Assembly (NCBI RefSeq): GCF_003334255.1
Contig: NZ_QOWU01000080.1
DNA: 14,006 nt
DNA from: Escherichia coli
GTDB lineage: Bacteria > Pseudomonadota > Gammaproteobacteria > Enterobacterales > Enterobacteriaceae
Strand: one strand, 5' to 3'
Below, in pieces: positions 1-14,006 of this stretch; within the stretch, counting starts at the first letter, position 1, and each line of letters opens with the position of its first letter. A model generated the notes under the pieces. The model was not told where the DNA came from. It did not search any database and saw nothing but the letters and a program-made list of their open reading frames with translations. Made by a program: the position numbers and the translations under genes.

Positions 1-216
1 GACCCGCCACCCCACGATGTATCCGGCAAACACATCAATGATGAACGCCACATAGACGAAGCCCCGCCATGTGCTGACGTAAGTAAAATCAGCCACCCAC
101 AGCTGGTCAGGTCGTTCTGCCACGAACTGACGGTTTACGTGGTCGCCTGCGGCAACGGCTTTCCGGCTGATGGTCGTACGGACCTTTTTACCCCGGAGAA
201 CACCGGCAAGTCCCAT
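1..216 (-). pseudogene. IS3-family transposase OrfB (DDE integrase) internal fragment; runs off the window start and lacks orfA and the OrfB N-terminus
   Basis: Minus-strand translation of 1-216 gives MGLAGVLRGKKVRTTISRKAVAAGDHVNRQFVAERPDQLWVADFTYVSTWRGFVYVAFIIDVFAGYIVGWRV, matching the IS3-family OrfB core; an in-frame stop lies just upstream and no orfA follows. Confidence 0.6.
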
Positions 217-289
217 AACCGCCATGTCGCAGTCGTCAGTCTGCTACTCGAATGGCGTAACGTAGCCATTTTTCTGGCCCCACACGTAG

Positions 290-820
290 TCAGGCTTTCC
301 ACGTAGAATGCAGCAATTTTTCATCAGTCAGGCTCATAATCAACCCCACTTTTTTTTCTTTATACAGCAAGAAATCAGCACGTCCAGTACATCCCTCTTC
401 CGCTTCTTGCCAGGTGGCCACCTGAGTGCGGAACTCATCATCAAACACAGACTTATCAGGCCATACCACCAGAGTTTTACCACGATAACTAATCTCAAAA
501 ATAAACTGTCCCCCTAAAGAGAAAGGGGCATCAGGGTGCCTTAAAGTAGGGTTTTGCAGGCAACGTCCTTCACGTACAGCGTGAGAAAGTATCTCTACAC
601 AATCCACAATTCCCGGACCGGGAAAACCCAGACTCCAGTAAAGCTCGCGGCGCATCACCGGTTGTTGCGGAGACAACAGAGAAAAAGCGTAGCGGCTCAC
701 ACGAATCATTAGTGCAGCAGCAATAACATTAGCGTTAGTCGTATATTTTAATAAATCCTGGCGCGTCAGAGTGATATCACCATCTTGATCCCGTACGGTT
801 ACGGTTAATTCGCTCATCAA
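290..820 (-). CDS. Hypothetical protein (176 aa), last gene of the ABC operon; paralog of the 3210-3767 product
   Basis: Long ORF directly abutting the binding-protein gene. Shares the motifs SLLSPQ, RREL, FPGxGxxDCxE and GxFxFExSYRxK with the 185-aa ORF. Confidence 0.6.
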
Positions 821-1762
821 TTACTGCTCCATAGCCTGTGGTAAAACAATATTGCTAACGTCAATTTCGTTGCGAATCATTCCATTTTCAATCATAAATT
901 GGATATCTTCTTTCATGCTGGTTATATCGTCCTGATTCAGACGCTGAGTGAAGTGAGACCGATTATACAATTTCTGTGCATCCTCAACGCTAATGCCCTG
1001 TACTTTTGCGCCTAATGCTATGGCTTCCGACTGATTTTTTTCTATCCATGTACTTGCCTCATCATGGGCAGCAATGACGACTTTAATCCAGTTCGGGTGT
1101 TTTTTAACTACCTTATCACTGGATGCCATGACCAATTTAGGTACAACCAAACCACTGGCGGTCGTCAGTACTTTAGCTCCTTCCTGTTCTGCTTTAATCA
1201 CCATGGTGGCAGCCAATAGTGCGGCATCAACCTGACTACTTTGTAAAGCCGCAAATGCCTGTGGCAAATCCATTTGAACAAACTGAACATCGTTCATGCT
1301 TAAACCATTTTTCACCAAAGCAGCCACCAACGTCTGATGTAAAACCGTGCCTTTAGGCCCTGCAATCTTTTTACCTTTTAATCCGGCAATAGAATTAACA
1401 CCATTCTTAGCCCCTACAATGGCAAAAGTATCGGTAGGACGAGAAACACCAGCGATGATCATCACAGGATTACCCTCGCTATTAGACATTAAAACTGAAG
1501 AAGTATTCATTACCCCTGCAATATCAAGATCACCGCTAGCTAGCGCCTGAGCCTGTTTGGCTCCGGAAGTAATTTCGTGCCATTCCACGTTTAATCCCAG
1601 CGATTCAGCCTGCTTTTCCAACAGGTTGTGCTCCTTCATTACAATCATTTGCAGATTAAATGGTGATTTAACATAGCTGATATCCAGCGTTTTATCATCC
1701 GCATGGGCCAGTCCAGAACTCAACAATGCAGAAAACAACGTGGTCAGAAGTATCTTTTTCAT
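821..1762 (-). CDS. ABC transporter periplasmic substrate-binding protein, NMT1/THI5 (SsuA/TauA-like) family
   Basis: 313 aa with an N-terminal signal peptide (MKKILLTTLFSALLSSGLAHA) and overall NMT1/SsuA-like character; sits in an operon with ABC ATPase and permease genes. Confidence 0.8.
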   Translation of the reverse strand: MKKILLTTLFSALLSSGLAHADDKTLDISYVKSPFNLQMIVMKEHNLLEKQAESLGLNVEWHEITSGAKQAQALASGDLDIAGVMNTSSVLMSNSEGNPVMIIAGVSRPTDTFAIVGAKNGVNSIAGLKGKKIAGPKGTVLHQTLVAALVKNGLSMNDVQFVQMDLPQAFAALQSSQVDAALLAATMVIKAEQEGAKVLTTASGLVVPKLVMASSDKVVKKHPNWIKVVIAAHDEASTWIEKNQSEAIALGAKVQGISVEDAQKLYNRSHFTQRLNQDDITSMKEDIQFMIENGMIRNEIDVSNIVLPQAMEQ

Positions 1763-1786
1763 AGTTCATCCTTATTCATAAGCAGT

Positions 1787-2455
1787 TTATAAATGGGTCA
1801 GTATTCGTTGTTTTAATTCTGTGTGGGAAATATCATGATGGCGGCGGTATACCACCGCAATTCGTCCTTGACTCATAACTAAAATCTGCTGACCAATAGT
1901 TATCGCTTCATTGAGGTCATGAGTGACAAACAAACAACTAATGTTTTGATGAGTAATCAGTCGAATTAACATTTCTTGCTGTTCTGACCGCGTGATGGCA
2001 TCCAGGGCTGCAAAAGGTTCATCCATCAGTAATACTTGTGGTTTTTGCAGAAGAGCTCTTGCGATTCCTACTCGCTGCGCCATACCACCAGAAAGTTCAT
2101 GAGGCATCAGGGAATAACTTTCTCCCAGTTGAACCTGTTGTAATACTTCAGCAATTTTGGCTTGTTTAATTTTTCTGCTACATAAAAATGGCAAAGCTAA
2201 TGCCAGATTTTCAGCTACCGTTAACCATGGTAATAAACGTGGTTCCTGAAACACCATGGCACACTGTGATGCAGAGATGTTGACTGTTCCGCTATCCGGT
2301 TTAATCAAACCTGCTACAATACGCAATAAAGTGGATTTTCCTCCACCAGAAGGGCCGAGCAAGCAAATAATTTCTCCCGGCGGCAGCGAAAGTGAGACAT
2401 CGATCAATACCTGTTTTTGCTGATAGCTTTTATTAATATGAGATAATGCTATCAT
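1787..2455 (-). CDS. ABC transporter ATP-binding protein (NitT/TauT family)
   Basis: Walker A GPSGGGKST, ABC signature LSGGMAQRVGIARAL, Walker B LLMDEPFAALD, H-loop FVTHD. Confidence 0.9.
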   Translation of the reverse strand: MIALSHINKSYQQKQVLIDVSLSLPPGEIICLLGPSGGGKSTLLRIVAGLIKPDSGTVNISASQCAMVFQEPRLLPWLTVAENLALALPFLCSRKIKQAKIAEVLQQVQLGESYSLMPHELSGGMAQRVGIARALLQKPQVLLMDEPFAALDAITRSEQQEMLIRLITHQNISCLFVTHDLNEAITIGQQILVMSQGRIAVVYRRHHDISHTELKQRILTHL

Positions 2456-3213
2456 CAGGTTGTTACCTCCGGAAAACGACGACGTAATAGCAGCACCAAT
2501 GAGCGATAAAATAGCGTATCCAATAGCCAGCCAATTAAACCAATGGTTAAAATACCCACTATTACAGCATCAGTACGCATCATCTCTTGTGAATCAATAA
2601 TCAAGTATCCCAGTCCACTGCTGGCAGCGATCAATTCTGCGCCAATTAATGCTCGCCAGCTATAACCAAAAGCCAGACGAAAACCAGTAACCACAGAAGG
2701 AGTGGCGCTTGGAATTACAATCGCCAACAGATAGCGTAAAGGTGAAAGATTCAGGCTAATGGCCAATTCCTTATGGGCTGTACTGACGCGACGCAGTCCA
2801 TCACGAGTGTTAAGAAATATGGGAAACACCGAGGCCAAAACAATAATCGAGAGTTGTGTCGTCTCCCCAATACCCAACCATAAAATCAATAATGGCGTCA
2901 TGGCCAATGGGGGGATCATACGAAAGAGTGCCAAAGGCGCGGACAATAACTGTTCCAGCCATGAGTAACGAGCAACCAAACCGGCCAACATCGTTCCAAG
3001 ACAACAACTCAGACAAAACCCTTCAAACACTCGTAATAATGAAGTGGATATATGACGAGGCAATGCGCCAATTTGCCACATATTTACGGCGGAATAAAAC
3101 ACCGTTATGGGTGATGGTAGTAAATAAGCAGAGATTAACTCCAAACTTGATAACAATTGCCAGTAAATCAATAGTAATATTGGTGTCAGCAACGGTCGCC
3201 AATAGCGCATCAC
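2455..3213 (-). CDS. ABC transporter permease (NitT/TauT family)
   Basis: 252-aa hydrophobic multi-helix protein; its stop overlaps the ATPase start and its start overlaps the stop of the upstream 185-aa ORF, suggesting translational coupling. Confidence 0.85.
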   Translation of the reverse strand: MMRYWRPLLTPILLLIYWQLLSSLELISAYLLPSPITVFYSAVNMWQIGALPRHISTSLLRVFEGFCLSCCLGTMLAGLVARYSWLEQLLSAPLALFRMIPPLAMTPLLILWLGIGETTQLSIIVLASVFPIFLNTRDGLRRVSTAHKELAISLNLSPLRYLLAIVIPSATPSVVTGFRLAFGYSWRALIGAELIAASSGLGYLIIDSQEMMRTDAVIVGILTIGLIGWLLDTLFYRSLVLLLRRRFPEVTT

Positions 3214-3767
3214 AATACCTGTATTGAATCCATTGGTGAGACGGTTAACAGCGTATTAGCTAACTGATATTTAGCCACCATCCACTGTCGTTGAACTTCT
3301 GGTGTTGCATCTGGCTGCTTACTTGCACGCCCTATTTTCAAAAATTCAGTAGTTGGCTGCCCGCCTACCGGAGCTAATGATACTTTTTTACTACGATAAC
3401 TAAATTCAAAATAGAAACGTCCAGTAAGACCTTGCTGTGCTTCGGTTTGGTCAAAGTCGACATCTAATATAAAACGATTTTCCGACACCATGCGGGTTAC
3501 CAACTCAAAACAATCACGGGCCCCCCTCCCCGGAAAGGCTGTAAATAATGCTAATTCCCGACGTTGCAGGGGCTCATCCTGCGGTGATAGCAATGAAATA
3601 GCCCTTTGTAGTAACCGAAATCCCAGTACTACGCCACCAACAGCATCATACCCATGATAATTGAAGGCATCCTGAACCGAGAAAGAAAAAAGCTGATGAT
3701 TATCTGCAACGTTTAGGGATGGCATAACCCATTGGGATACAGGGATAAGACCTGGATTAGTACTCAT
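3210..3767 (-). CDS. Hypothetical protein (185 aa), first gene of the ABC operon; paralog of the 290-820 product
   Basis: ORF overlaps the permease start by 4 bp; shares conserved blocks with the 176-aa ORF (see finding). Confidence 0.6.
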   Translation of the reverse strand: MSTNPGLIPVSQWVMPSLNVADNHQLFSFSVQDAFNYHGYDAVGGVVLGFRLLQRAISLLSPQDEPLQRRELALFTAFPGRGARDCFELVTRMVSENRFILDVDFDQTEAQQGLTGRFYFEFSYRSKKVSLAPVGGQPTTEFLKIGRASKQPDATPEVQRQWMVAKYQLANTLLTVSPMDSIQVL

Positions 3768-3857
3768 GTCAACCGCCTTTCTCTTTTTATAGTAAGAGTT
3801 ATTCCCTCATGTCGATTCTAGATACAAATACAAACAACATCAATTCTCATTCCCTCT

Positions 3858-4143
3858 TCAGGTTATTTGCCTCGCTGTTTTTCTCACTGTCTCCGTTATG
3901 GTGTACACCACCTCTTCCAGTAACCGACACTTCGCCGAACTCAGGAAACCGTAGTACCTCACCATACGGAACCCCTGAGGTAGCCAGGAGGCTGCAAATC
4001 GGGGTGTGGCAGAATATGAGCTTTCAGAGTAACCATCCAGAATGAGTTCCCATGTCACACAACCTGGAGCACCAGAAAGTCCACACCAGAATGGTGAAAG
4101 AGGTTCTGAAAGCCGTCGCCAGAGCCAATAATCACCCTTATCA
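3858..4143 (-). pseudogene. Possible IS91-family (Y2 rolling-circle) transposase C-terminal remnant
   Basis: Minus-strand translation contains LPQGFRMVRYYGFLSSAKCRLL, resembling the conserved C-terminal block of IS91-family transposases as recalled (LPKGF.RIRHYGFLAN); ends abruptly at the IR at 4144. Confidence 0.3.
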
Positions 4144-4181
4144 GGGGTTCCGTGGGAATTTCTGCGATAACACCCGCTAAG
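4144..4181 (+). repeat. Tn3-family 38-bp terminal inverted repeat (left)
   Basis: GGGGTTCCGTGGGAATTTCTGCGATAACACCCGCTAAG. Confidence 0.65.
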
Positions 4182-4318
4182 CGATTCCTCCCTGACGGAA
4201 ATCACTTGTTTTCCGTCAGGTCCTGCAGTTGAAGAAAATTGAATCCATAAATCTGTGATTTTTTGCGTGACAAACCCTGTCGGAATGAGAAACTGTACGG
4301 AAACTTCAATTTTAAGGT

Positions 4319-5748: not shown

Positions 5749-6149
5749 TGCCTGTCGTTCGACTGTTCTTCCGTTTTTTCCCTTCATTTGGGGGATTTTC
5801 TTTCAGTTTTTTTGTTAAGTCCAATGCTGCCGGTCGCGTTGGCCAACAGATCAATGCCGTTATCGGCGTTTCCATTAATCCTTTTTTTCAGTAAGTTGCA
5901 GCACAAAAGATGATTAAAAAGCTATCAGTTTTTTTGATGGATACAGTAGCGGCGGTACGCTGCGTGAAATCTGAGGTTTTCGGGTAGGATTGGTCGCGAG
6001 AATTTACGAGAGAGCGACGGGCGGTTTCTGCACTGAGACAAGATACAACCGTTCTTTTTTTTCCCCTTCACGCCGTAGCTGAGCGATCTCGTCTCTGTTA
6101 CGCTGAAGTTCAATGATAGTCGTAATATTTAACTCTTTACCTCTTTCGT

Positions 6150-6166
6150 GGTATACCAGGTATACC
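6150..6166 (+). promoter_or_regulatory. Tandem 8-bp palindromes GGTATACC-a-GGTATACC, candidate operator upstream of the EamA gene
   Basis: Two identical self-complementary octamers separated by 1 nt, about 17 nt upstream of the start codon and just 5' of the AGGAGG ribosome-binding site. Confidence 0.3.
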
Positions 6167-6182
6167 GAAAAAAGGAGGCGTG

Positions 6183-7070
6183 ATGAACAACCAAAACTAT
6201 TTTTTAGTCCGTTGTATGTACGTAATTCTGATGGGACTAGGTTTTCCTATCATGAGATATATGAGTTTAAACTTTGACACATTAAATAACAATGCTATCA
6301 GATTTATCTCTGGAGGTGTTATTTTTTGCATTGTCTGCTTATTAAAGTACAATAACCACTTAAAAAATATAAATATTAAAACAATACTACTGCTTTTTGT
6401 TCTTTCTATTTTCATGACATGTAACATGTTCTTTTTTATTAATGGAATAAAGCATACATCAGCCTTATCAGGGAGTATTTTTAGTATATTAGCAATGCCA
6501 TTAGGTATTCTTGTCGCCAGTTTATTTTTTATTGACGAACGAGAAAGAGCACTTAGCTATAAATTTATAACAGGTTCATTAATTGCAATTATTGGATCAT
6601 TTATTTTTGTTTTTAATGGTTACTCTTTGGATTCCGGCTCATTTAGTTATACAGGCTTTATATTTTTAACCATCGCAATTTGCATTCAATCGATACAAAA
6701 TGTCATTGTTAAAATTGTAGCACAATACCTTCCCGCAATTGTAATTAGTGCGTCAACAGCAACAATTTCAGGGTTAATGTTTTTATTATTAGCAATAAAA
6801 ACAGGCGTTATCACAGAATTATCAGTAACATCCAAAGAATTATTAATATATTTGGTTCTTGCTGGCATATATGGAATGATGACAGGTATGCTTATGGCAT
6901 TTTACATAGTAAAAACACAAGGGGTAACTATTTTTAATATAACTCAATTACTAATCCCCGTATCAACAGGAATTTTTGGATACATCACTTTAGGTGAAAA
7001 AGTTGATCTTATTCAGGCAACAGGAGCAGTGATCATCATTGCTGGCTGTATTTTTGCAACAAAGCGATAA
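6183..7070 (+). CDS. DMT-superfamily (EamA-like) integral membrane transporter
   Basis: ~295 aa, about 10 predicted hydrophobic helices in two repeated halves; AGGAGG 4 nt upstream of ATG 6183 (the track's 6180 start is a GTG one codon upstream); very AT-rich. Confidence 0.8.
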   Translation: MNNQNYFLVRCMYVILMGLGFPIMRYMSLNFDTLNNNAIRFISGGVIFCIVCLLKYNNHLKNINIKTILLLFVLSIFMTCNMFFFINGIKHTSALSGSIFSILAMPLGILVASLFFIDERERALSYKFITGSLIAIIGSFIFVFNGYSLDSGSFSYTGFIFLTIAICIQSIQNVIVKIVAQYLPAIVISASTATISGLMFLLLAIKTGVITELSVTSKELLIYLVLAGIYGMMTGMLMAFYIVKTQGVTIFNITQLLIPVSTGIFGYITLGEKVDLIQATGAVIIIAGCIFATKR

Positions 7071-7080
7071 TGAGGTATTT

Positions 7081-8076
7081 ATGTATAATGTTGGTATTAT
7101 TGGGCTAGGGCAAATAGCTTATTCAATCGATAATGACCCGGCAAGAAAGATTACCTGGTCTCATATAAATGCATACAAAAAGTCTAAAGATACGCAAGTT
7201 ATATCAATCTGTGACATAGATGAAACACAAGTCAAAAAGATATCACAGGAATGTGATATCTATTCAGGGTATACCGATTACAGAGAAATGCTCAAAAATG
7301 AAGACCTCGATATAGTTAGTATTTGCACACCGATAAATACTCATGTTCAAATAATAAAAGACTGCATAAAGCATAATGTCAAAGCTATATTTTGTGAGAA
7401 GACAATATCATACAGTCTGGATGATTCGAGTGAAATCGTTGAATTATGCAAGAAAAATAATGTAGTACTGGCTGTTAATCATGTCCGTCGATGGGATGAT
7501 TTTAATCAAAAAATAAAAAATATAATTACACAAGATAATTATGGCGATATTTATACTATTGACTGCTATGGTGGAACGGCACTCCATACCAGTACAAGTC
7601 ACTTAATTGACTTAATGTGCTTCTTTTCTGATTCAGAGCCAGAATGGAGCATTGGATGTAAACAACAGGATTATGTTCGTAATGTTCACGGTGTACATGA
7701 TTACGGGGGCACAGGGTTTATAAAATTTAAAAATGGAATTATTGGGATAGTAAAATCAAATTCATCTTCTGAATTTAATATTTGCTTTGAAATTGATATT
7801 GCATGTAAAAATGGAAGAGTTATTATAACTGACGCTGGAGATACATGTGAGTTTTATAAATTTACACACAGTAATAGTTCGAGTGGTAGTCATTACAAAA
7901 CGTTATCTCTCGTACATAAAATATATAAAAATCAAACTGAAAGAATGATCAATGCTGTAAATAATATCGTTATGGCATTAAAAAAAGATCAGCAAGTCAA
8001 ATCAACAGGTCAAACATCATTAGCTTCCATCAAAATAATCAGTGGTATTTTATCTGAGGAAAAAACATTATTCTAA
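7081..8076 (+). CDS. Gfo/Idh/MocA-family NAD(P)-dependent oxidoreductase
   Basis: N-terminal Rossmann motif MYNVGIIGLGQIA; GAGG 5 nt upstream of ATG 7081. The track's 7039 start overlaps the previous gene and lacks a ribosome-binding site. Confidence 0.8.
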   Translation: MYNVGIIGLGQIAYSIDNDPARKITWSHINAYKKSKDTQVISICDIDETQVKKISQECDIYSGYTDYREMLKNEDLDIVSICTPINTHVQIIKDCIKHNVKAIFCEKTISYSLDDSSEIVELCKKNNVVLAVNHVRRWDDFNQKIKNIITQDNYGDIYTIDCYGGTALHTSTSHLIDLMCFFSDSEPEWSIGCKQQDYVRNVHGVHDYGGTGFIKFKNGIIGIVKSNSSSEFNICFEIDIACKNGRVIITDAGDTCEFYKFTHSNSSSGSHYKTLSLVHKIYKNQTERMINAVNNIVMALKKDQQVKSTGQTSLASIKIISGILSEEKTLF

Positions 8077-8081
8077 TTTGA

Positions 8082-8113
8082 TATCCTCCATGTACAGAGA
8101 AACGTGGAGGATA
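8082..8113 (+). terminator. Hairpin after the oxidoreductase gene (terminator-like, no clear U-tract)
   Basis: 11-bp stem TATCCTCCATG / CGTGGAGGATA with one G-U pair and a 10-nt loop, 6 nt after the stop codon. Confidence 0.35.
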
Positions 8114-8169: not shown

Positions 8170-8436
8170 TTATCGTCTCTTCGCCCACTCTTTTTCATCA
8201 TCGGTGAGTTGTTCTTTATGCAAATAATCACCAGGAACAGGGGGAGGGGTAACCAGTTTAGGACGTCCATTATCATCACGAACTGTCACCAGACCAACTA
8301 CTTCTCCATTTTCTTTAAGTGCCCATGCAGCCAGTTGATATAGTGTTGACTTTCCTGTTACACCAGAGACATTATCGTGACGAAAATACCAGTCTGTCGC
8401 AGGGATAATTTGTTTATAAGGTGATGATTCACTCAT
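8170..8436 (-). CDS. Hypothetical protein (88 aa)
   Basis: ATG at 8436 preceded by GAGG with an 8-nt spacer; the track's longer 133-aa version has no ribosome-binding site at its start. Product MSESSPYKQIIPATDWYFRHDNVSGVTGKSTLYQLAAWALKENGEVVGLVTVRDDNGRPKLV... Confidence 0.5.
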   Translation of the reverse strand: MSESSPYKQIIPATDWYFRHDNVSGVTGKSTLYQLAAWALKENGEVVGLVTVRDDNGRPKLVTPPPVPGDYLHKEQLTDDEKEWAKRR

Positions 8437-8688
8437 AGCTTTTTCCTCAAAAAAATCTCCGGTATAAAACCAGAGGCTTGTTATAGGGGTCAGTTTGGAG
8501 ATCGGAAAATTTTGTTCGTTAAGCACATTATTTAACCAATAGATATGCGTAACGGATTGATTTTGCGTCAACGGCTATCGCTTTTAAGTTATCGCCATTG
8601 CGGTATTGCATTTAGGTTATCCGATAGAGGTCAAATCCTCTGAAAATGCCGTATAGCACGGGAGTACACCCTACCGCAATAGCGCAAC

Positions 8689-8704: not shown

Positions 8705-8865
8705 TTTCCCAAACGCAGCCCATCAGGCGCGGAACTCATCGAGGCGCGGGAATAAAATCCCATTCAGATGCCGGATAGATTCAAGCAAGCCCACTTATCG
8801 TCAAAATCGGTGTTGCAAAAACGGGAGTGACCATAGATTCGTTTCCCAAACCGCCCCCTTTTATA

Positions 8866-8899
8866 TTGACCAGAAGTGTTGTACAGTTTAATTGTACAA
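8866..8899 (+). promoter_or_regulatory. phd-doc promoter with two palindromic TGTACA operator sites
   Basis: TTGACC at 8866-8871; two TTGTACA-containing palindromes centred about 13 bp apart (8879-8886 and 8892-8899), immediately upstream of the ribosome-binding site. Confidence 0.45.
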
Positions 8900-8916
8900 C
8901 TCAAAGAGGAAGCACT

Positions 8917-9141
8917 ATGTTTACATGTAACTATAGCCATGCTCGCGATAACCTGGCCTCGTTGCTCGAGCTGGCGGTTGATGAAAATCAGCCAGTTGAG
9001 ATTCAGCGCCGTAAAGGTGGCGCAGCTGTACTGGTTGATAAAGACGCTTTTGAACGATACCGTAAAGCGGCTCTTGATGCTGAGTTTGCTGAGATCATGC
9101 AAAGTCATGGGACGGCCTATACGGAGCTTTCTAAGCGATGA
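8917..9141 (+). CDS. phd: Phd-family antitoxin
   Basis: 74 aa, MFTCNYSHARDNLASLLELAVDENQPVEIQRRKGGAAVLVDKDAFERYRKAALDAEFAEIM..., closely resembling P1 Phd as recalled; GAGGA 6 nt upstream; stop overlaps the doc start (ATGA). Confidence 0.85.
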   Translation: MFTCNYSHARDNLASLLELAVDENQPVEIQRRKGGAAVLVDKDAFERYRKAALDAEFAEIMQSHGTAYTELSKR

Positions 9142-9524
9142 AATTCGTTAGTTCACAGGAAGTGATTGAGTTTCATGACCGCTTGATTTCGCGTGATGGT
9201 GGCGTGGCGGGTATGCCAGAACCCGGTCGCGCTGACGCGATCATTCATCGTGTTTTGAACATGTATCATTATGAAGGTGTGACAGATATTATGGATCTGG
9301 CTGCCGTGTATTTAGTTGCTATTGCTCGTGGTCACATTTTCAACGATGCAAATAAGCGAACAGCCTTGTTTGTTGCACAGGTTTTTTTAAAACGGAATGG
9401 TGTACATATTATTAGTTCACGTATTTCGTTTGATGAAATGCAAATTATCGCTTTGAATGCTGCAACAGGAGAATATAACTGGAAGATGGTTTCTGACCAT
9501 CTTAAAGCCATTATTCTAAATTAG
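9138..9524 (+). CDS. doc: Doc toxin (Fic/Doc family)
   Basis: 128 aa with the Doc-type motif HIFNDANKRTA and GMPEPGRADAII, resembling P1 Doc; translationally coupled to phd. Confidence 0.9.
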   Translation: MKFVSSQEVIEFHDRLISRDGGVAGMPEPGRADAIIHRVLNMYHYEGVTDIMDLAAVYLVAIARGHIFNDANKRTALFVAQVFLKRNGVHIISSRISFDEMQIIALNAATGEYNWKMVSDHLKAIILN

Positions 9525-10567: not shown

Positions 10568-11158
10568 CTATACAGTAACAGTTTGCTGTTTCGCTCTAAC
10601 TCTCAGAATTGTTTGCCGTGTGGTTCGGAATTCCCTGGCAATAGCACTTATACTTGCCCCAGACTTAATGCGTTCGAGTACCTTCTGTTTTTGTTCTTCA
10701 TTTAATACCGGTGGGCGACCAAAACGTTTTCCTGCATCCCGTGCTCTTGCTATCCCTGAATAAGTTCGTTCAAGTAAAAGATCTCGTTCAAATTCAGCGA
10801 CCGCTGAAATCACTTGCATTGTCATTTTTCCTGCCGGACTGGTCAGATCAACACCACCTAATGCCAGGCAATGCACCCTGATGCCAGATTCGGTCAGTTG
10901 CTCCACTGTTTTCCTGATATCCATTGCATTACGACCGAGGCGATCCAGTTTTGTGACTATCAATACATCGCCACTTTCCAGACGATCAAGCAACCGGTTA
11001 AAACTAGGACGTTCACTGGCTGCTACTGAGCCACTAATTTGTTCTTCGATTATTCGTTGGGGTCTGACGTTAAAACCCGCGCTTTCGATTTCCCGACGTT
11101 GATTTTCGGTCGTCTGTTCCAGAGTGGAAACCCGACAATAGGCAAAAATTCGAGACAT
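10568..11158 (-). CDS. tnpR: Serine recombinase, Tn3-family resolvase TnpR
   Basis: 196 aa; N-terminal catalytic motif [22 protein letters not shown]-helix region, C-terminal HTH; divergent from tnpA. Confidence 0.9.
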
Positions 11159-11318
11159 AGTGAGATCTTCTGTACGAAATAGGTGTACATATTATAATGC
11201 ATGTCCGAAAGTAATTTCGCTGACTTTCGGATATATCTGTTTAACAATGTCCGAAACCGGTCGTTTTCGGTCACAACAAATCCATAACATATGAAAACTT
11301 TACACGAGGGAAGCATTC
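11159..11318. promoter_or_regulatory. res site region with divergent tnpR/tnpA promoters
   Basis: Repeated imperfect inverted half-sites (TGTCCGAAAGTA...GACTTTCGGATA; TGTCCGAAACC...TTTTCGGTCACA) and a palindromic ATTATAAT giving a -10-like hexamer on both strands. Confidence 0.5.
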
Positions 11319-13037
11319 ATGCCACGGCGACAAATACTGAGTAGTGAAGAGCAAGCTCGCCTGCTGGTTATACCAGATGATGAAATTATTCTGACCAGAA
11401 TGTGTTTTCTTTGTGATAAAGATATTGCTCTCATTAATAAGCACCGGCGTCCAGCTAATCGCCTGGGCTTTGCGGTATTACTCTGTTACCTGCGTGGGCC
11501 TGGATTTGTTCCGGACAAAAATAATGTTCCCCACTGTGGCGTTGTATCCAGAATTGCTTCAAGACTGAAGCTTCAGCCCGATTTATGGCATGAATATGCA
11601 GCCAGAGAGCAAACCCGCTGGGAGCATCTGGCTGAACTTTATCGCTACCTGAAATTATCTCCGTTCAGCCGAACTCTGCAAAAAGACTGCATTCGGCATC
11701 TGCATTCCTATGCCATGCGAACAGATAAAGGATTTACTCTGGCGGAGGAAATGCTCAGTTGGCTACATAACAATAATGTTATTTTCCCGTCGGTTGATGT
11801 GATCGAACGGACGCTTGCCGAAGCCGTCACACTTGCTGACAGATCTGTTTTTTCGGCACTTACGACACAACTGGGAAAGCAGCATAGATCTGCACTCGAC
11901 AGCCTGCTCATATCAGAAGGGGAACAACCTTCCCGACTTGCGTGGCTACTTCAGCCTCCCGGTAAAATTAACGGTAAAAACGTGCTGCAACATATCGATC
12001 GACTTAATTCTATCACCGCGCTGGAATTACCTGATGGTATTGAGCTTTCCGTTCACCAGAACAAATTACTCAAACTGGCGCGTGAGGGCCGAAAAATGAG
12101 CAGCAGAGATCTGGCAAAATTCACCGATATCAGACGTTACGCTACGCTGGTTTGTGTCATTCAGGAAGCCAGAGCAACATTGACTGATGAAGTTATCGAG
12201 CTACACGAACGCATTATGGGCGGTCTGTTCAGCCAGGCAAAACGCACACAAGCCGAGAGGCTTCAGTTAACAGGCAAACTTATCCAGAGCAAGTTAAGAC
12301 AATATGTTACTGTCGGTCAGGCGCTACTGCATGCCAGAAAGTCAGGTGAAGATCCCTGGGCCGCGATAGAAGATGTTATTCCCAGGCAGGAGTTCGTCAA
12401 CAGCCTGGAAGAAACACAGTTGCTGTCCCGTAAAGGTAATTTCGATCCTCTTCACCTGATCACCGAAAAATACAGCACACTTCGAAAATACGCTCCACGA
12501 ATGTTGTCAGCATTGCAGTTTGTAGCGACACCTGCGGCGCAGCCGCTCAGCGATGCACTGGATACTATAAGGGAAATATACCGTAAGCAGCTTCGTAACG
12601 TTCCGCCTACAGCGCCAACAGCATTTATTCCTGAAAGCTGGCGAAAACTGGTATTAACGCCTTCAGGCATCAATCGAAAATACTATGAGTTTTGTGTACT
12701 GAATGAACTCAAGGGGGCGTTACGTTCCGGAGATATTTGGGTAAAAGGGTCGCGTCGTTACAGAAATTTTGATGATTATCTTATCCCGGTCACTGAATTT
12801 GATAAATCCCGACAAAATGACCAGTTACAACTGGCTGTGCAGACTGATTGCCATGCATATCTTCAGGCCCGTATGACGCTTCTTGCATCTCGTCTGGAAG
12901 AAGTTAACGCAATGGCTCTTGCCGGTGAGCTGCCGGATGTTGATATTTCAGATAAAGGAGTGAAAATCACTCCGCTGGAGAACGGGGTTCTGAGGTGTAC
13001 TGGCAATAGCGGACACTACCATTTGTTCTTTTTTTAA
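11319..13037 (+). pseudogene. tnpA: Tn3-family transposase TnpA, N-terminal ~557 aa only; interrupted by IS insertion at about 12990
   Basis: N-terminus MPRRQILSSEEQARLL...RPANRLGFAVLLCYLR closely resembles Tn3-family TnpA; full-length TnpA is about 1000 aa. The last ~15 codons (LRCTGNSGHYHLFFF) are read from the IS end. Confidence 0.85.
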
Positions 13038-14006
13038 GCAGCCATCTGATGATATTTTTCCCTGAAGGCTGCCGGGGAGATATTCCCCAGACGAGAGTGA
13101 CGACGCTGACGATTGTAGAAAATCTCAATGTATTCCCGTATTACTGAGATGGCTTCATCCCGGTTATTAAAACGATAGTGGCTCAGGCTCTCATTTTTCA
13201 GCGTTCCCCAGAAGCTTTCCATCGGAGCGTTGTCGTAACAGTTACCTTTACGCGACATTGATGTTTTCAGACCAAACTGCTCCTGTATGACCCGGTAATC
13301 GTATGCGCAGTACTGTGAACCTCGATCAGAGTGGTGGATTAGCCCGGCAGGTGGGCGCTGGCTCCTGAGCGCCATAAACAGGGCTTTACCTGTCAGCTCT
13401 TTTGTCATGCGCTCTCCCATGGCGTAGCCGACAATTTCGCACGTATAAACATCTTTGATGCCAGCGAGGTACAACCATCCCTCCTGTGTGGCAACATACG
13501 TCAGGTCCGCCACCCAGACCTGATTTGGTGCTGTAGGAGCGAACGTCTGGTTCAGCAGATTTGGCGCAACTGGCAGATTGTGGTTCGAGTTCGTAGTCGC
13601 TCTGAACTTGCGTTTCTGCTTACAGCGTAGCCTTAGCTCCTTACGAAGACGTGCCAGTTGGTCACGACCAACGATGATGCCATTCTCTGCCAGCTCCGTC
13701 TGGAGCCGCCGGGTTCCATATGTTTCGCGAGTGCGGATATGTGCCACCTTAATCTCCAGTTTTAGCCGCTCATCACTTTGTTTTCTGTCTGAGGGTTCAT
13801 GCTGTACCCAGTTGTAATAACCGCTCCTGGATACACCAAATACCTGACACATCGCTTCAATGGGAAATTGTTGTCGCCATTGTTCGATTAACGCGTATTT
13901 TTCAGCGACTCCTGTGCAAAATACGCTGTTGTAGATTCAATCTGTCAATGCAACACCCCTTTCAATTATCTCTTTCGGTGTTTTGAACTTCAGTGTCTTT
14001 CTCGGT
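12991..14006 (-). mobile_element. IS3-family insertion sequence (3' part with intact orfB; orfA apparently disrupted or absent), runs off the window
   Basis: IS terminus at 12991 (TGAGGTGTACTGGCAATAGCGGACAC) resembles IS3 ends as recalled; orfB intact; only ~17 codons of an orfA-like C-terminus (TAYFAQESLKNTR) precede stops in every frame. Confidence 0.7.
13034..13852 (-). CDS. IS3-family transposase OrfB (DDE integrase)
   Basis: 272 aa with VSRSGYYNW near the N-terminus, WVADLTYV, HHSDRGSQY and CYDNAPMESFWGTLK (DDE catalytic core). Confidence 0.85.
   Translation of the reverse strand: MCQVFGVSRSGYYNWVQHEPSDRKQSDERLKLEIKVAHIRTRETYGTRRLQTELAENGIIVGRDQLARLRKELRLRCKQKRKFRATTNSNHNLPVAPNLLNQTFAPTAPNQVWVADLTYVATQEGWLYLAGIKDVYTCEIVGYAMGERMTKELTGKALFMALRSQRPPAGLIHHSDRGSQYCAYDYRVIQEQFGLKTSMSRKGNCYDNAPMESFWGTLKNESLSHYRFNNRDEAISVIREYIEIFYNRQRRHSRLGNISPAAFREKYHQMAA

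Follow-up and report, generated by a model that had tools for sequence, protein, structure and literature searches.

A mobile ABC importer cassette from an Escherichia coli plasmid, bracketed by two FmdE-like paralogs and with a predicted link to iron

What do two paralogous proteins of no named family do at the two ends of an operon for an ATP-binding cassette (ABC) importer? This question is raised by five genes on the minus strand of a 14,006-nucleotide stretch of Escherichia coli DNA (RefSeq assembly GCF_003334255.1, contig NZ_QOWU01000080.1; the whole stretch is called the window here). The first and the last gene encode cytoplasmic proteins of 185 and 175 residues, P1 (3210..3767) and P2 (290..817). 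Between them lie the genes for a permease (2455..3213), an ATPase (1787..2455) and a periplasmic substrate-binding protein (821..1762). A preliminary description of the locus had proposed that the paralogs have an accessory role in this uptake system and had named sulfonates, nitrate and pyrimidine precursors as substrate classes. Our analysis places P1 and P2 in a known fold family. For the system as a whole we tentatively favour an iron-regulated importer whose cargo is received or processed by a cytoplasmic heterodimer of P1 and P2.

Family and fold of the bracketing proteins

P1 and P2 are paralogs, as had been noted before. They align over 117 residues with 35% identity (E=2e-19), and the four motifs quoted for this relationship (SLLSPQ, RREL, FPGxGxxDCxE and GxFxFExSYRxK) are all present in both. 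A direct family assignment by sequence failed. P1 and P2 matched nothing in Pfam, even at E<=10, and nothing in NCBIfam, and in sequence searches of the PDB neither the two proteins nor two family profiles had a match. In a large protein collection 84 homologs of P1 were detected, none of them named, and a profile search of the family returned 433 cluster representatives. It was thus reasonable that the preliminary description left the proteins without a family.

An AlphaFold model of P1, based on an alignment of 24 homologs, reached a predicted local distance difference test score (pLDDT) of 95.8 and a predicted template modelling score (pTM) of 0.91. The only significant matches in a Foldseek search of the PDB were the FmdE-like structures 2glz and 2gvi (E about 1e-4, probability 1.0), and the alpha+beta core fold of the solved FmdE proteins is present. 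Neighbours in the AlphaFold database with template modelling scores of 0.8-0.9 are often named 'formylmethanofuran dehydrogenase subunit E domain-containing protein'. In a joined P2+P1 model, P2 has the same secondary-structure pattern as P1. The Pfam profile PF02663 does not match P1 or P2 themselves, and the link to it is only transitive: when 71 diverse family members were scanned singly, 5 matched at E<=1e-3 (best 9.7e-8) and 23 at E<=0.1. Because of the structure matches and these hits, P1 and P2 are divergent members of the FmdE/FwdE-like superfamily, out of reach of the Pfam model. Hence the two proteins, which had been left without a family, have one.

The solved FmdE family proteins form intertwined dimers with a D..Q..T motif at the dimer axis and an FHGHxC metal-binding motif on the loop joining helices 1 and 2 (PMC2954224). 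Canonical FmdE is encoded in operons of molybdenum or tungsten enzymes and bound Zn or Ni in crystals, and according to the 2010 structural paper most PF02663 genes neighbour metal-ion transporter genes (PMC2954224). P1 and P2 differ from the FmdE/FwdE family (PF02663; 2GLZ, 2GVI, 3D00) in more than their escape from the Pfam model. They lack a zinc-finger domain, and in place of the FmdE/FwdE homodimer there are two specialised paralogs that differ from each other, or a fusion of the two. Their hosts are non-methanogen bacteria and their partner is an NMT1-type importer. The metal ligands differ as well. In place of FHGHxC, P1 has YHGYDA, which keeps the first His alone, and P2 has KYTTNA, which keeps none; the equivalence of these loops comes from secondary structure, not from superposition. 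Of the 71 family members, 57 retain the first His of the loop, but neither the second His nor the Cys is kept across the family. P1 and P2 both have D..E where helix 3 begins (D85/E88 in P1, D73/E76 in P2), and these positions are near-invariant (68/71 and 70/71).

The alignment of 71 members splits the family into two classes. P1 belongs to a 'YHG...GG' class with Y-H-G and a G-G pair, and P2 to a 'no-His, D-C-x-E' class, which has neither the His nor the glycines and usually has a Cys in D-C-x-E. This Cys had been taken as invariant, and a catalytic role had been raised for it. At this position the 71 members have A in 34 cases, G in 18 and C in only 12; the residue in P1 orthologs is C, V, T, A or G, with one of the latter four in several of them. 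A catalytic invariant Cys is ruled out by the ortholog and family alignments, and since the residue varies across the family, a catalytic role common to all members is unlikely. Only among the P2 orthologs of the cassette is it invariant (Cys74, 16/16). The same orthologs share His80 (14/16), which stands where the rest of the family has a near-invariant Arg, and Cys87 (15/16). The three residues, specific to P2, could be part of a site for a metal or a cluster.

Coupling to the importer and the nature of the ligand

A locus survey with one genome per species returned 52 loci. The order P1-permease-ATPase-binding protein-P2 was found in 15 species-level loci of Gamma-, Beta- and Alphaproteobacteria and Desulfobacterota, and also in Morganella. 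The 15 loci include Orbus, Budvicia, Leminorella, an Enterobacteriaceae metagenome assembly, a Vibrio, Brachymonas, an assembly labelled Accumulibacter, a Xanthobacteraceae genome and several Desulfovibrio and Mailhella genomes; protein identities among the five-gene loci range from 28% to 88%. Loci of Burkholderiaceae and Sutterella have the alternative order permease-ATPase-binding protein-P2like-P1like. No gene beyond the five was consistently adjacent across the related loci, and therefore the cassette is self-contained.

Natural tandem fusions of 350-367 residues also exist. Their N-terminal half fits the P2 profile better and their C-terminal half the P1 profile, and one such P2~P1 fusion is encoded directly downstream of genes for a permease, an ATPase and an NMT1-type binding protein. 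With these fusions and the dimeric FmdE proteins, a P1-P2 heterodimer is the natural reading, and we infer that P1 and P2 most likely act jointly in this form. The conserved gene order and the fusions make the proposed accessory role well founded. No well-characterised family with an unrelated role emerged for the two proteins, which are co-conserved with the transporter.

A tblastn census covered the gene neighbours in 56 family loci. The importer near the family gene was of the NMT1 type in 23 loci; beside more distant family members it was of the FecBCD/Btu type in 7 and of the Nik/Opp type in 5, and 17 loci had no importer inside 4.5 kb. Some of the FecBCD/Btu-type loci also carry a TonB-dependent receptor. 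Other fusion partners of the family domain are GNAT acetyltransferases, a TetR regulator and an [FeFe]-hydrogenase-like 4Fe-4S module.

Two groups of FecBCD-type loci have further genes beside the family member. In four of them (L028, L037, L046, L047) it is accompanied by two proteins of about 215 residues, which form a single 432-residue fusion in Pseudonocardia. These companions had no informative match in Pfam or NCBIfam and may be further components of the system of the FecBCD-type branch. In the Intestinimonas and Flavonifractor loci (L032-L034), the FecBCD-type importer and the family member have two further neighbours. One is a NifH-like ATPase, closest in NCBIfam to CfbC, a subunit of the F430 cyclase (281 bits, under the cut-off), and the other is a 621-residue partner without a family match. 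These neighbours may point to a cargo, tetrapyrrole-like or a metal chelate, that is both imported and reduced.

What the importer of the cassette carries was approached through its binding protein. This protein has a signal peptide (MKKILLTTLFSALLSSGLAHA) and scores above the cut-off of TIGR01728 (SsuA_fam; 171.5 versus 163.5 bits), which makes it a member of the SsuA/NMT1 family. The permease (BPD_transp_1; SsuC/TauC/NtrB-like) has its best NCBIfam matches in SaoP, SsuC, NtrB and TauC, all under the equivalog cut-offs. The ATPase (222 residues, no C-terminal regulatory domain) is matched by many importer ATPase families of NCBIfam at about 1e-50, and none exceeds its cut-off. The solved structures nearest to the binding protein are SsuA 2x26 (1.4e-18), SsuA of X. 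citri (3e4r) and TauA 6ssy. X. citri SsuA holds the sulfonate by Gln36, Gly68, Gly86 and Ser141 (PMC3839906), and the equivalents in TauA are Gln30, Gly61, Gly79 and Thr132 (PMC6906117). In the window protein, Gln36, Gly86 and Ser141 are replaced by the hydrophobic residues Val31, Met85 and Val140, and only Gly68 is kept (Gly67). The three replacements are conserved in 21 cassette-type binding proteins, all of which share the near-invariant blocks SYVKxPFN, ITSGAKQAQ, GVMNTxS and GPKGTVLHQ. No sulfite-releasing partner of the SsuD/SsuE or TauD type was found in the window, nor in or beside the cassette in any of the 15 loci.

The pocket comparison with SsuA and TauA weakens the case for a typical sulfonate substrate. 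Given the replaced pocket residues, the conserved blocks of its own and the absence of SsuD/SsuE/TauD, the ligand is probably a specific conserved compound and not a typical alkanesulfonate. Transporter architecture and binding-protein family are shared with SsuABC and TauABC. The cassette differs from these in the loss of the sulfonate-coordinating residues, in having no desulfonating enzymes, in the two FmdE-like genes that bracket the operon and in its predicted control by Fur instead of sulfur starvation. The annotation of the binding protein suggests a sulfonate cargo, probably wrongly. Together with the predicted Fur control described below, these results do not favour the substrate classes named in the preliminary description.

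Promoter, Fur boxes and a possible role in iron uptake

A scan of the window revealed a conserved sigma-70 type promoter on the minus strand (3815..3843), TTGATG and TAGAAT with a spacer of 17 nucleotides, in the extra 84 bases upstream of P1. It is the only promoter-like site on this strand in window 1-4300. Its two hexamers are retained in the copies of Budvicia, Leminorella, Morganella, Accumulibacter and the Enterobacteriaceae assembly, and the promoter together with the block AATGAGAATTGAT..TT..TTTG is the only upstream sequence that aligns among five taxa. This cross-taxon alignment defines an operator-like block, AATGAGAATTGATGTTG (3835..3851, minus strand), which overlaps the -35 hexamer and resembles a degenerate Fur-type 7-1-7 site. 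Against TGATAATnATTATCA, the block has 3 mismatches (of 14) in Budvicia, Leminorella and Accumulibacter and 6 of 14 in the window copy by our count. The enterobacterial box over the -35 hexamer is weak, and the E. coli and Morganella boxes are weaker still.

Several other lineages have sites closer to the consensus. Significance was estimated with first-order Markov simulations for 31 upstream regions, and 21 of these contained a Fur-consensus match at p<=0.02. Eleven Vibrio loci with an orphan P1 homolog have a site with 2-4 mismatches to GATAATGATAATCATTATC about 60-90 nucleotides upstream of the gene, usually the sole such site in 14.5 kb and regardless of the neighbouring genes. Among the five-gene cassettes, that of Vibrio sp. 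99-8-1 has a site with 2 mismatches and that of Orbus one with 3. In four Vibrio loci, among them the five-gene Vibrio cassette, a site before the gene matches TGATAATnATTATCA perfectly, and in Parasutterella a 7-1-7 site with 1 mismatch lies about 80 nucleotides upstream of the permease gene. When 679 kb of loci were scanned, 15 of the 23 TGATAATnATTATCA sites with at most 2 mismatches lay in the 250 nucleotides before the family gene or operon; such stretches account for about 2% of the scanned DNA. A second type of box was found in the Desulfovibrionaceae. The Fur box of the delta-proteobacteria (Desulfovibrio) is WTGAAAATNATTTTCAW (PMC545781). Upstream sequence was available for six Desulfovibrionaceae loci. 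Every one of them has this motif 94-212 nucleotides before the operon, and in five there is no other match in 14.5 kb. Several independent lineages and two box types are therewith predicted to place the family under the iron sensor Fur.

Scans of the upstream regions with the consensus sites of ModE, NikR, Zur, FNR, CRP and IscR gave no convincing sites, and no riboswitch or leader RNA was matched in Rfam at gathering thresholds in the window and nine related loci. The Oligella ureolytica locus was rejected as direct support for Fur control. It has three tandem family paralogs (L039, 4996-5943), and an IS5-like transposase divides them from a Fur-boxed FecB-type operon, to which the box belongs. 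An insertion sequence (IS) may here have broken the original operon link.

Since the cassette and the orphan P1 homologs stand behind a Fur box in most lineages, their expression is probably on at iron shortage. In the mechanism that we tentatively favour, the binding protein would capture a small ligand, not a typical alkanesulfonate, in the periplasm, and the transporter would carry it into the cell. There the P1-P2 heterodimer would bind the cargo and hand on, release or process what is useful in it. Iron or a chelate that bears iron is the most plausible candidate for this part. Fur control, the iron link and the cargo-handling role are what we infer from these data. The Fur-boxed Vibrio orphans and the three importer classes suggest a general cytoplasmic handling of metal or chelate and not a one-substrate enzyme. 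The redox and acetyltransferase fusions are compatible with such a role, but are no proof of it. Fur-regulated ABC systems for iron uptake, such as Fhu, Fep and Hmu, have a Fur box at or before the promoter, as do several copies of the cassette, and likewise pair the importer with a small cytoplasmic partner of the FhuF, ViuB/YqjH or HemS type. As in Fur-regulated iron uptake, distant members of the family adjoin FecBCD-type importers and TonB-dependent receptors.

Several points weigh against an iron-regulated importer with a cargo-handling P1-P2 pair. We know of no NMT1/SsuA-type binding protein that binds iron or a siderophore, and to our knowledge the fold of P1 and P2, unlike the FhuF-, ViuB/YqjH- and HemS-type partners, has never been shown to act in iron release. 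Unlike the Fhu, Fep and Hmu systems, the cassette comes with no gene for a TonB-dependent outer-membrane receptor. One of the three FmdE metal ligands is left in P1 and none in P2. The joined P2+P1 model, built from paired orthologs, had a pLDDT of 91.4 and a pTM of only 0.64, and therefore how the two halves are placed relative to each other is not predicted with confidence. When compared with a 19-mer Fur consensus, the window copy differs at 8 positions even in its best match (p=0.53). On the E. coli plasmid the shared promoter is thus kept together with a Fur-like site that is only degenerate, and the regulation of this copy is uncertain. The copies of Brachymonas, Xanthobacteraceae, Sutterella and one further locus (L018) are likewise without a significant Fur site. 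No IdeR boxes were found near the family genes in actinobacterial loci and no Irr ICE boxes in alphaproteobacterial loci; the iron link is therefore not universal. Fur regulons also hold genes unrelated to iron import, and commonly include iron-sparing functions such as flavodoxin (PMC545781). Finally, each step of the mechanism rests on computation.

Three other explanations were weighed and are less well supported than an iron-regulated uptake module. It is unlikely, though it survives best among the three, that P1 and P2 are not cargo handlers but regulators that sense a ligand and adjust uptake or signaling by docking on the ATPase of the transporter or on other proteins. The family adjoins three structurally different classes of ABC importers whose common part is the ATPase, and the ATPase of the cassette has no regulatory domain at its C-terminus. 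One relative is fused to a TetR DNA-binding regulator, and the orphan copies of Vibrio have no fixed transporter neighbour. However, the GNAT acetyltransferase and [FeFe]-hydrogenase-like 4Fe-4S fusions suit the handling of a substrate better, and no fusion to an ABC component was seen among the 150 best family representatives.

Somewhat less likely again is that the cargo is not iron but another metal or a cofactor that spares iron (for example flavin, molybdate/tungstate, nickel or cobalt) and that P1-P2 serves as its cytoplasmic chaperone. The operon context and the bound metals of canonical FmdE would fit this, as would the iron-sparing members of Fur regulons, the ModE regulator gene that adjoins the Orbus cassette and two Vibrio homologs located downstream of a NikA-like importer. 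Yet the ModE gene is a neighbour in one locus only, where it is convergent, and the scans described above gave no ModE, NikR or Zur site and no riboswitch. In Vibrio, a Fur box lies between the Nik-like operon and the homolog, which therefore has a promoter of its own. The least probable of the three is an ordinary organosulfonate (Ssu/Tau-like) sulfur scavenger in which P1 and P2 act on the sulfonate or on released sulfite: the family score and nearest relatives of the binding protein and the many gut or sulfidogenic hosts argue for it, but the Val/Met/Val pocket, the lack of desulfonating enzymes and the fit of the upstream sites to Fur (CysB/Cbl sites were not searched for) argue against it.

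A bolder extension of the favoured iron-regulated importer, and a doubtful one, is that the FmdE fold represents an unrecognised class of cytoplasmic proteins for handling iron or iron chelates. The cassette would then be a new route for iron in gut-associated bacteria via an SsuA/NMT1-type binding protein, and the His of P1 and the Cys/His/Cys of P2 would form a composite cargo site. If true, this would be the first functional handle on the FmdE proteins encoded beside archaeal metalloenzyme and metal-transporter genes.

The FmdE fold family and its neighbourhood to metal-transporter genes were already known (PMC2954224). FmdE-like structures have been solved since 2006 without an assigned function, and these gene neighbours are the sole clue. 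New are the placement of P1 and P2 in the FmdE-like family, the probably heterodimeric, or fused, architecture of the pair, the constant association of this pair with an importer of the NMT1/SsuA type in a mobile cassette and the cross-lineage prediction of Fur control. A literature search on FmdE with ABC transporters and on Fur regulons with NMT1 found no paper on the module or on any of these four points. The cassette is a tractable bacterial case of FmdE-like proteins, with five genes in culturable Enterobacterales and Vibrio and on E. coli plasmids, and it brings a specific prediction on Fur and iron and specific residues for mutation. Should the iron link hold, it would add a new importer type and a new cytoplasmic partner to bacterial iron acquisition and would account for the plasmid spread of the cassette alongside other fitness cargo in gut bacteria. 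Should it fail, the region is still a well-defined transporter module.

Limits and genomic surroundings of the cassette

The open reading frames (ORFs) of all five genes were confirmed on the minus strand, packed as tightly as the preliminary description had stated. The gene of P1 overlaps that of the permease by 4 bp, the genes of permease and ATPase share 1 bp, and the gap between the binding protein and P2 is 0-3 nucleotides. The ORF of P2 reaches a TTG at 820, and its likely start is the ATG at 817, with GGAG 9 nucleotides upstream. The RefSeq version of P1 has 171 residues and begins 14 codons downstream of the ATG at 3767 (window 3725-3767). It is probably too short, because the skipped N-terminal block (LIPxxxWxxP) is conserved in orthologs of several phyla.

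The limits of the whole cassette (289..3851, minus strand) were taken from blastn matches. A Morganella morganii contig gave a single unbroken match of 3,563 bp with 92.5% identity, from window position 3851 to 289, and the matches of Budvicia, Leminorella and the Enterobacteriaceae metagenome assembly begin at the same upstream edge (3849-3851). As the conserved promoter/operator block belongs to the unit, the cassette extends to 3851, past position 3767 at which the region had been ended before. It is flanked by IS remnants, IS91-related upstream and a fragment of an IS3-family transposase downstream. The Morganella copy lies amid mobile-element genes (HigBA, transposase, TraU). The window itself comes from a conjugative plasmid of E. 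coli: it matches NZ_CP060058 at 100% identity and pECOED, from strain ED1a, at 99.9%. Carriage in E. coli is rare: the cassette was present in 5 of 5,426 complete genomes and plasmid-borne every time. The region is thus a self-contained, horizontally mobile cassette that encodes a type I ABC importer and two flanking cytoplasmic paralogs.

The remainder of the window shows that the operon is embedded in a mosaic of mobile elements. On the plus strand, 5661-5748 matches Rfam RF02891 (AgrB antisense RNA, arsR-gor region) with 68.8 bits versus a gathering score of 40; here it sits on a plasmid with IS remnants on both sides. Positions 6000-8100 form an island of low GC content (32-33% versus about 45% in the surroundings), which looks like a separate foreign insert and encodes a DMT-family transporter (6180-7070) and a Gfo/Idh/MocA oxidoreductase (7039-8076). 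A 133-residue ORF on the minus strand (8170-8571) is named 'methionyl-tRNA formyltransferase' in RefSeq, probably wrongly, because it is far below the length of that enzyme. A Phd/Doc toxin-antitoxin pair, a serine resolvase and a Tn3-family transposase ORF occupy 8827-9524 and 10568-13852, and the Tn3-family ORF stops where an IS3-family transposase gene starts (13034). On the Morganella contig, a ferritin-like gene (L058, 8155-8655) lies about 3 kb from the cassette in the same mobile region.

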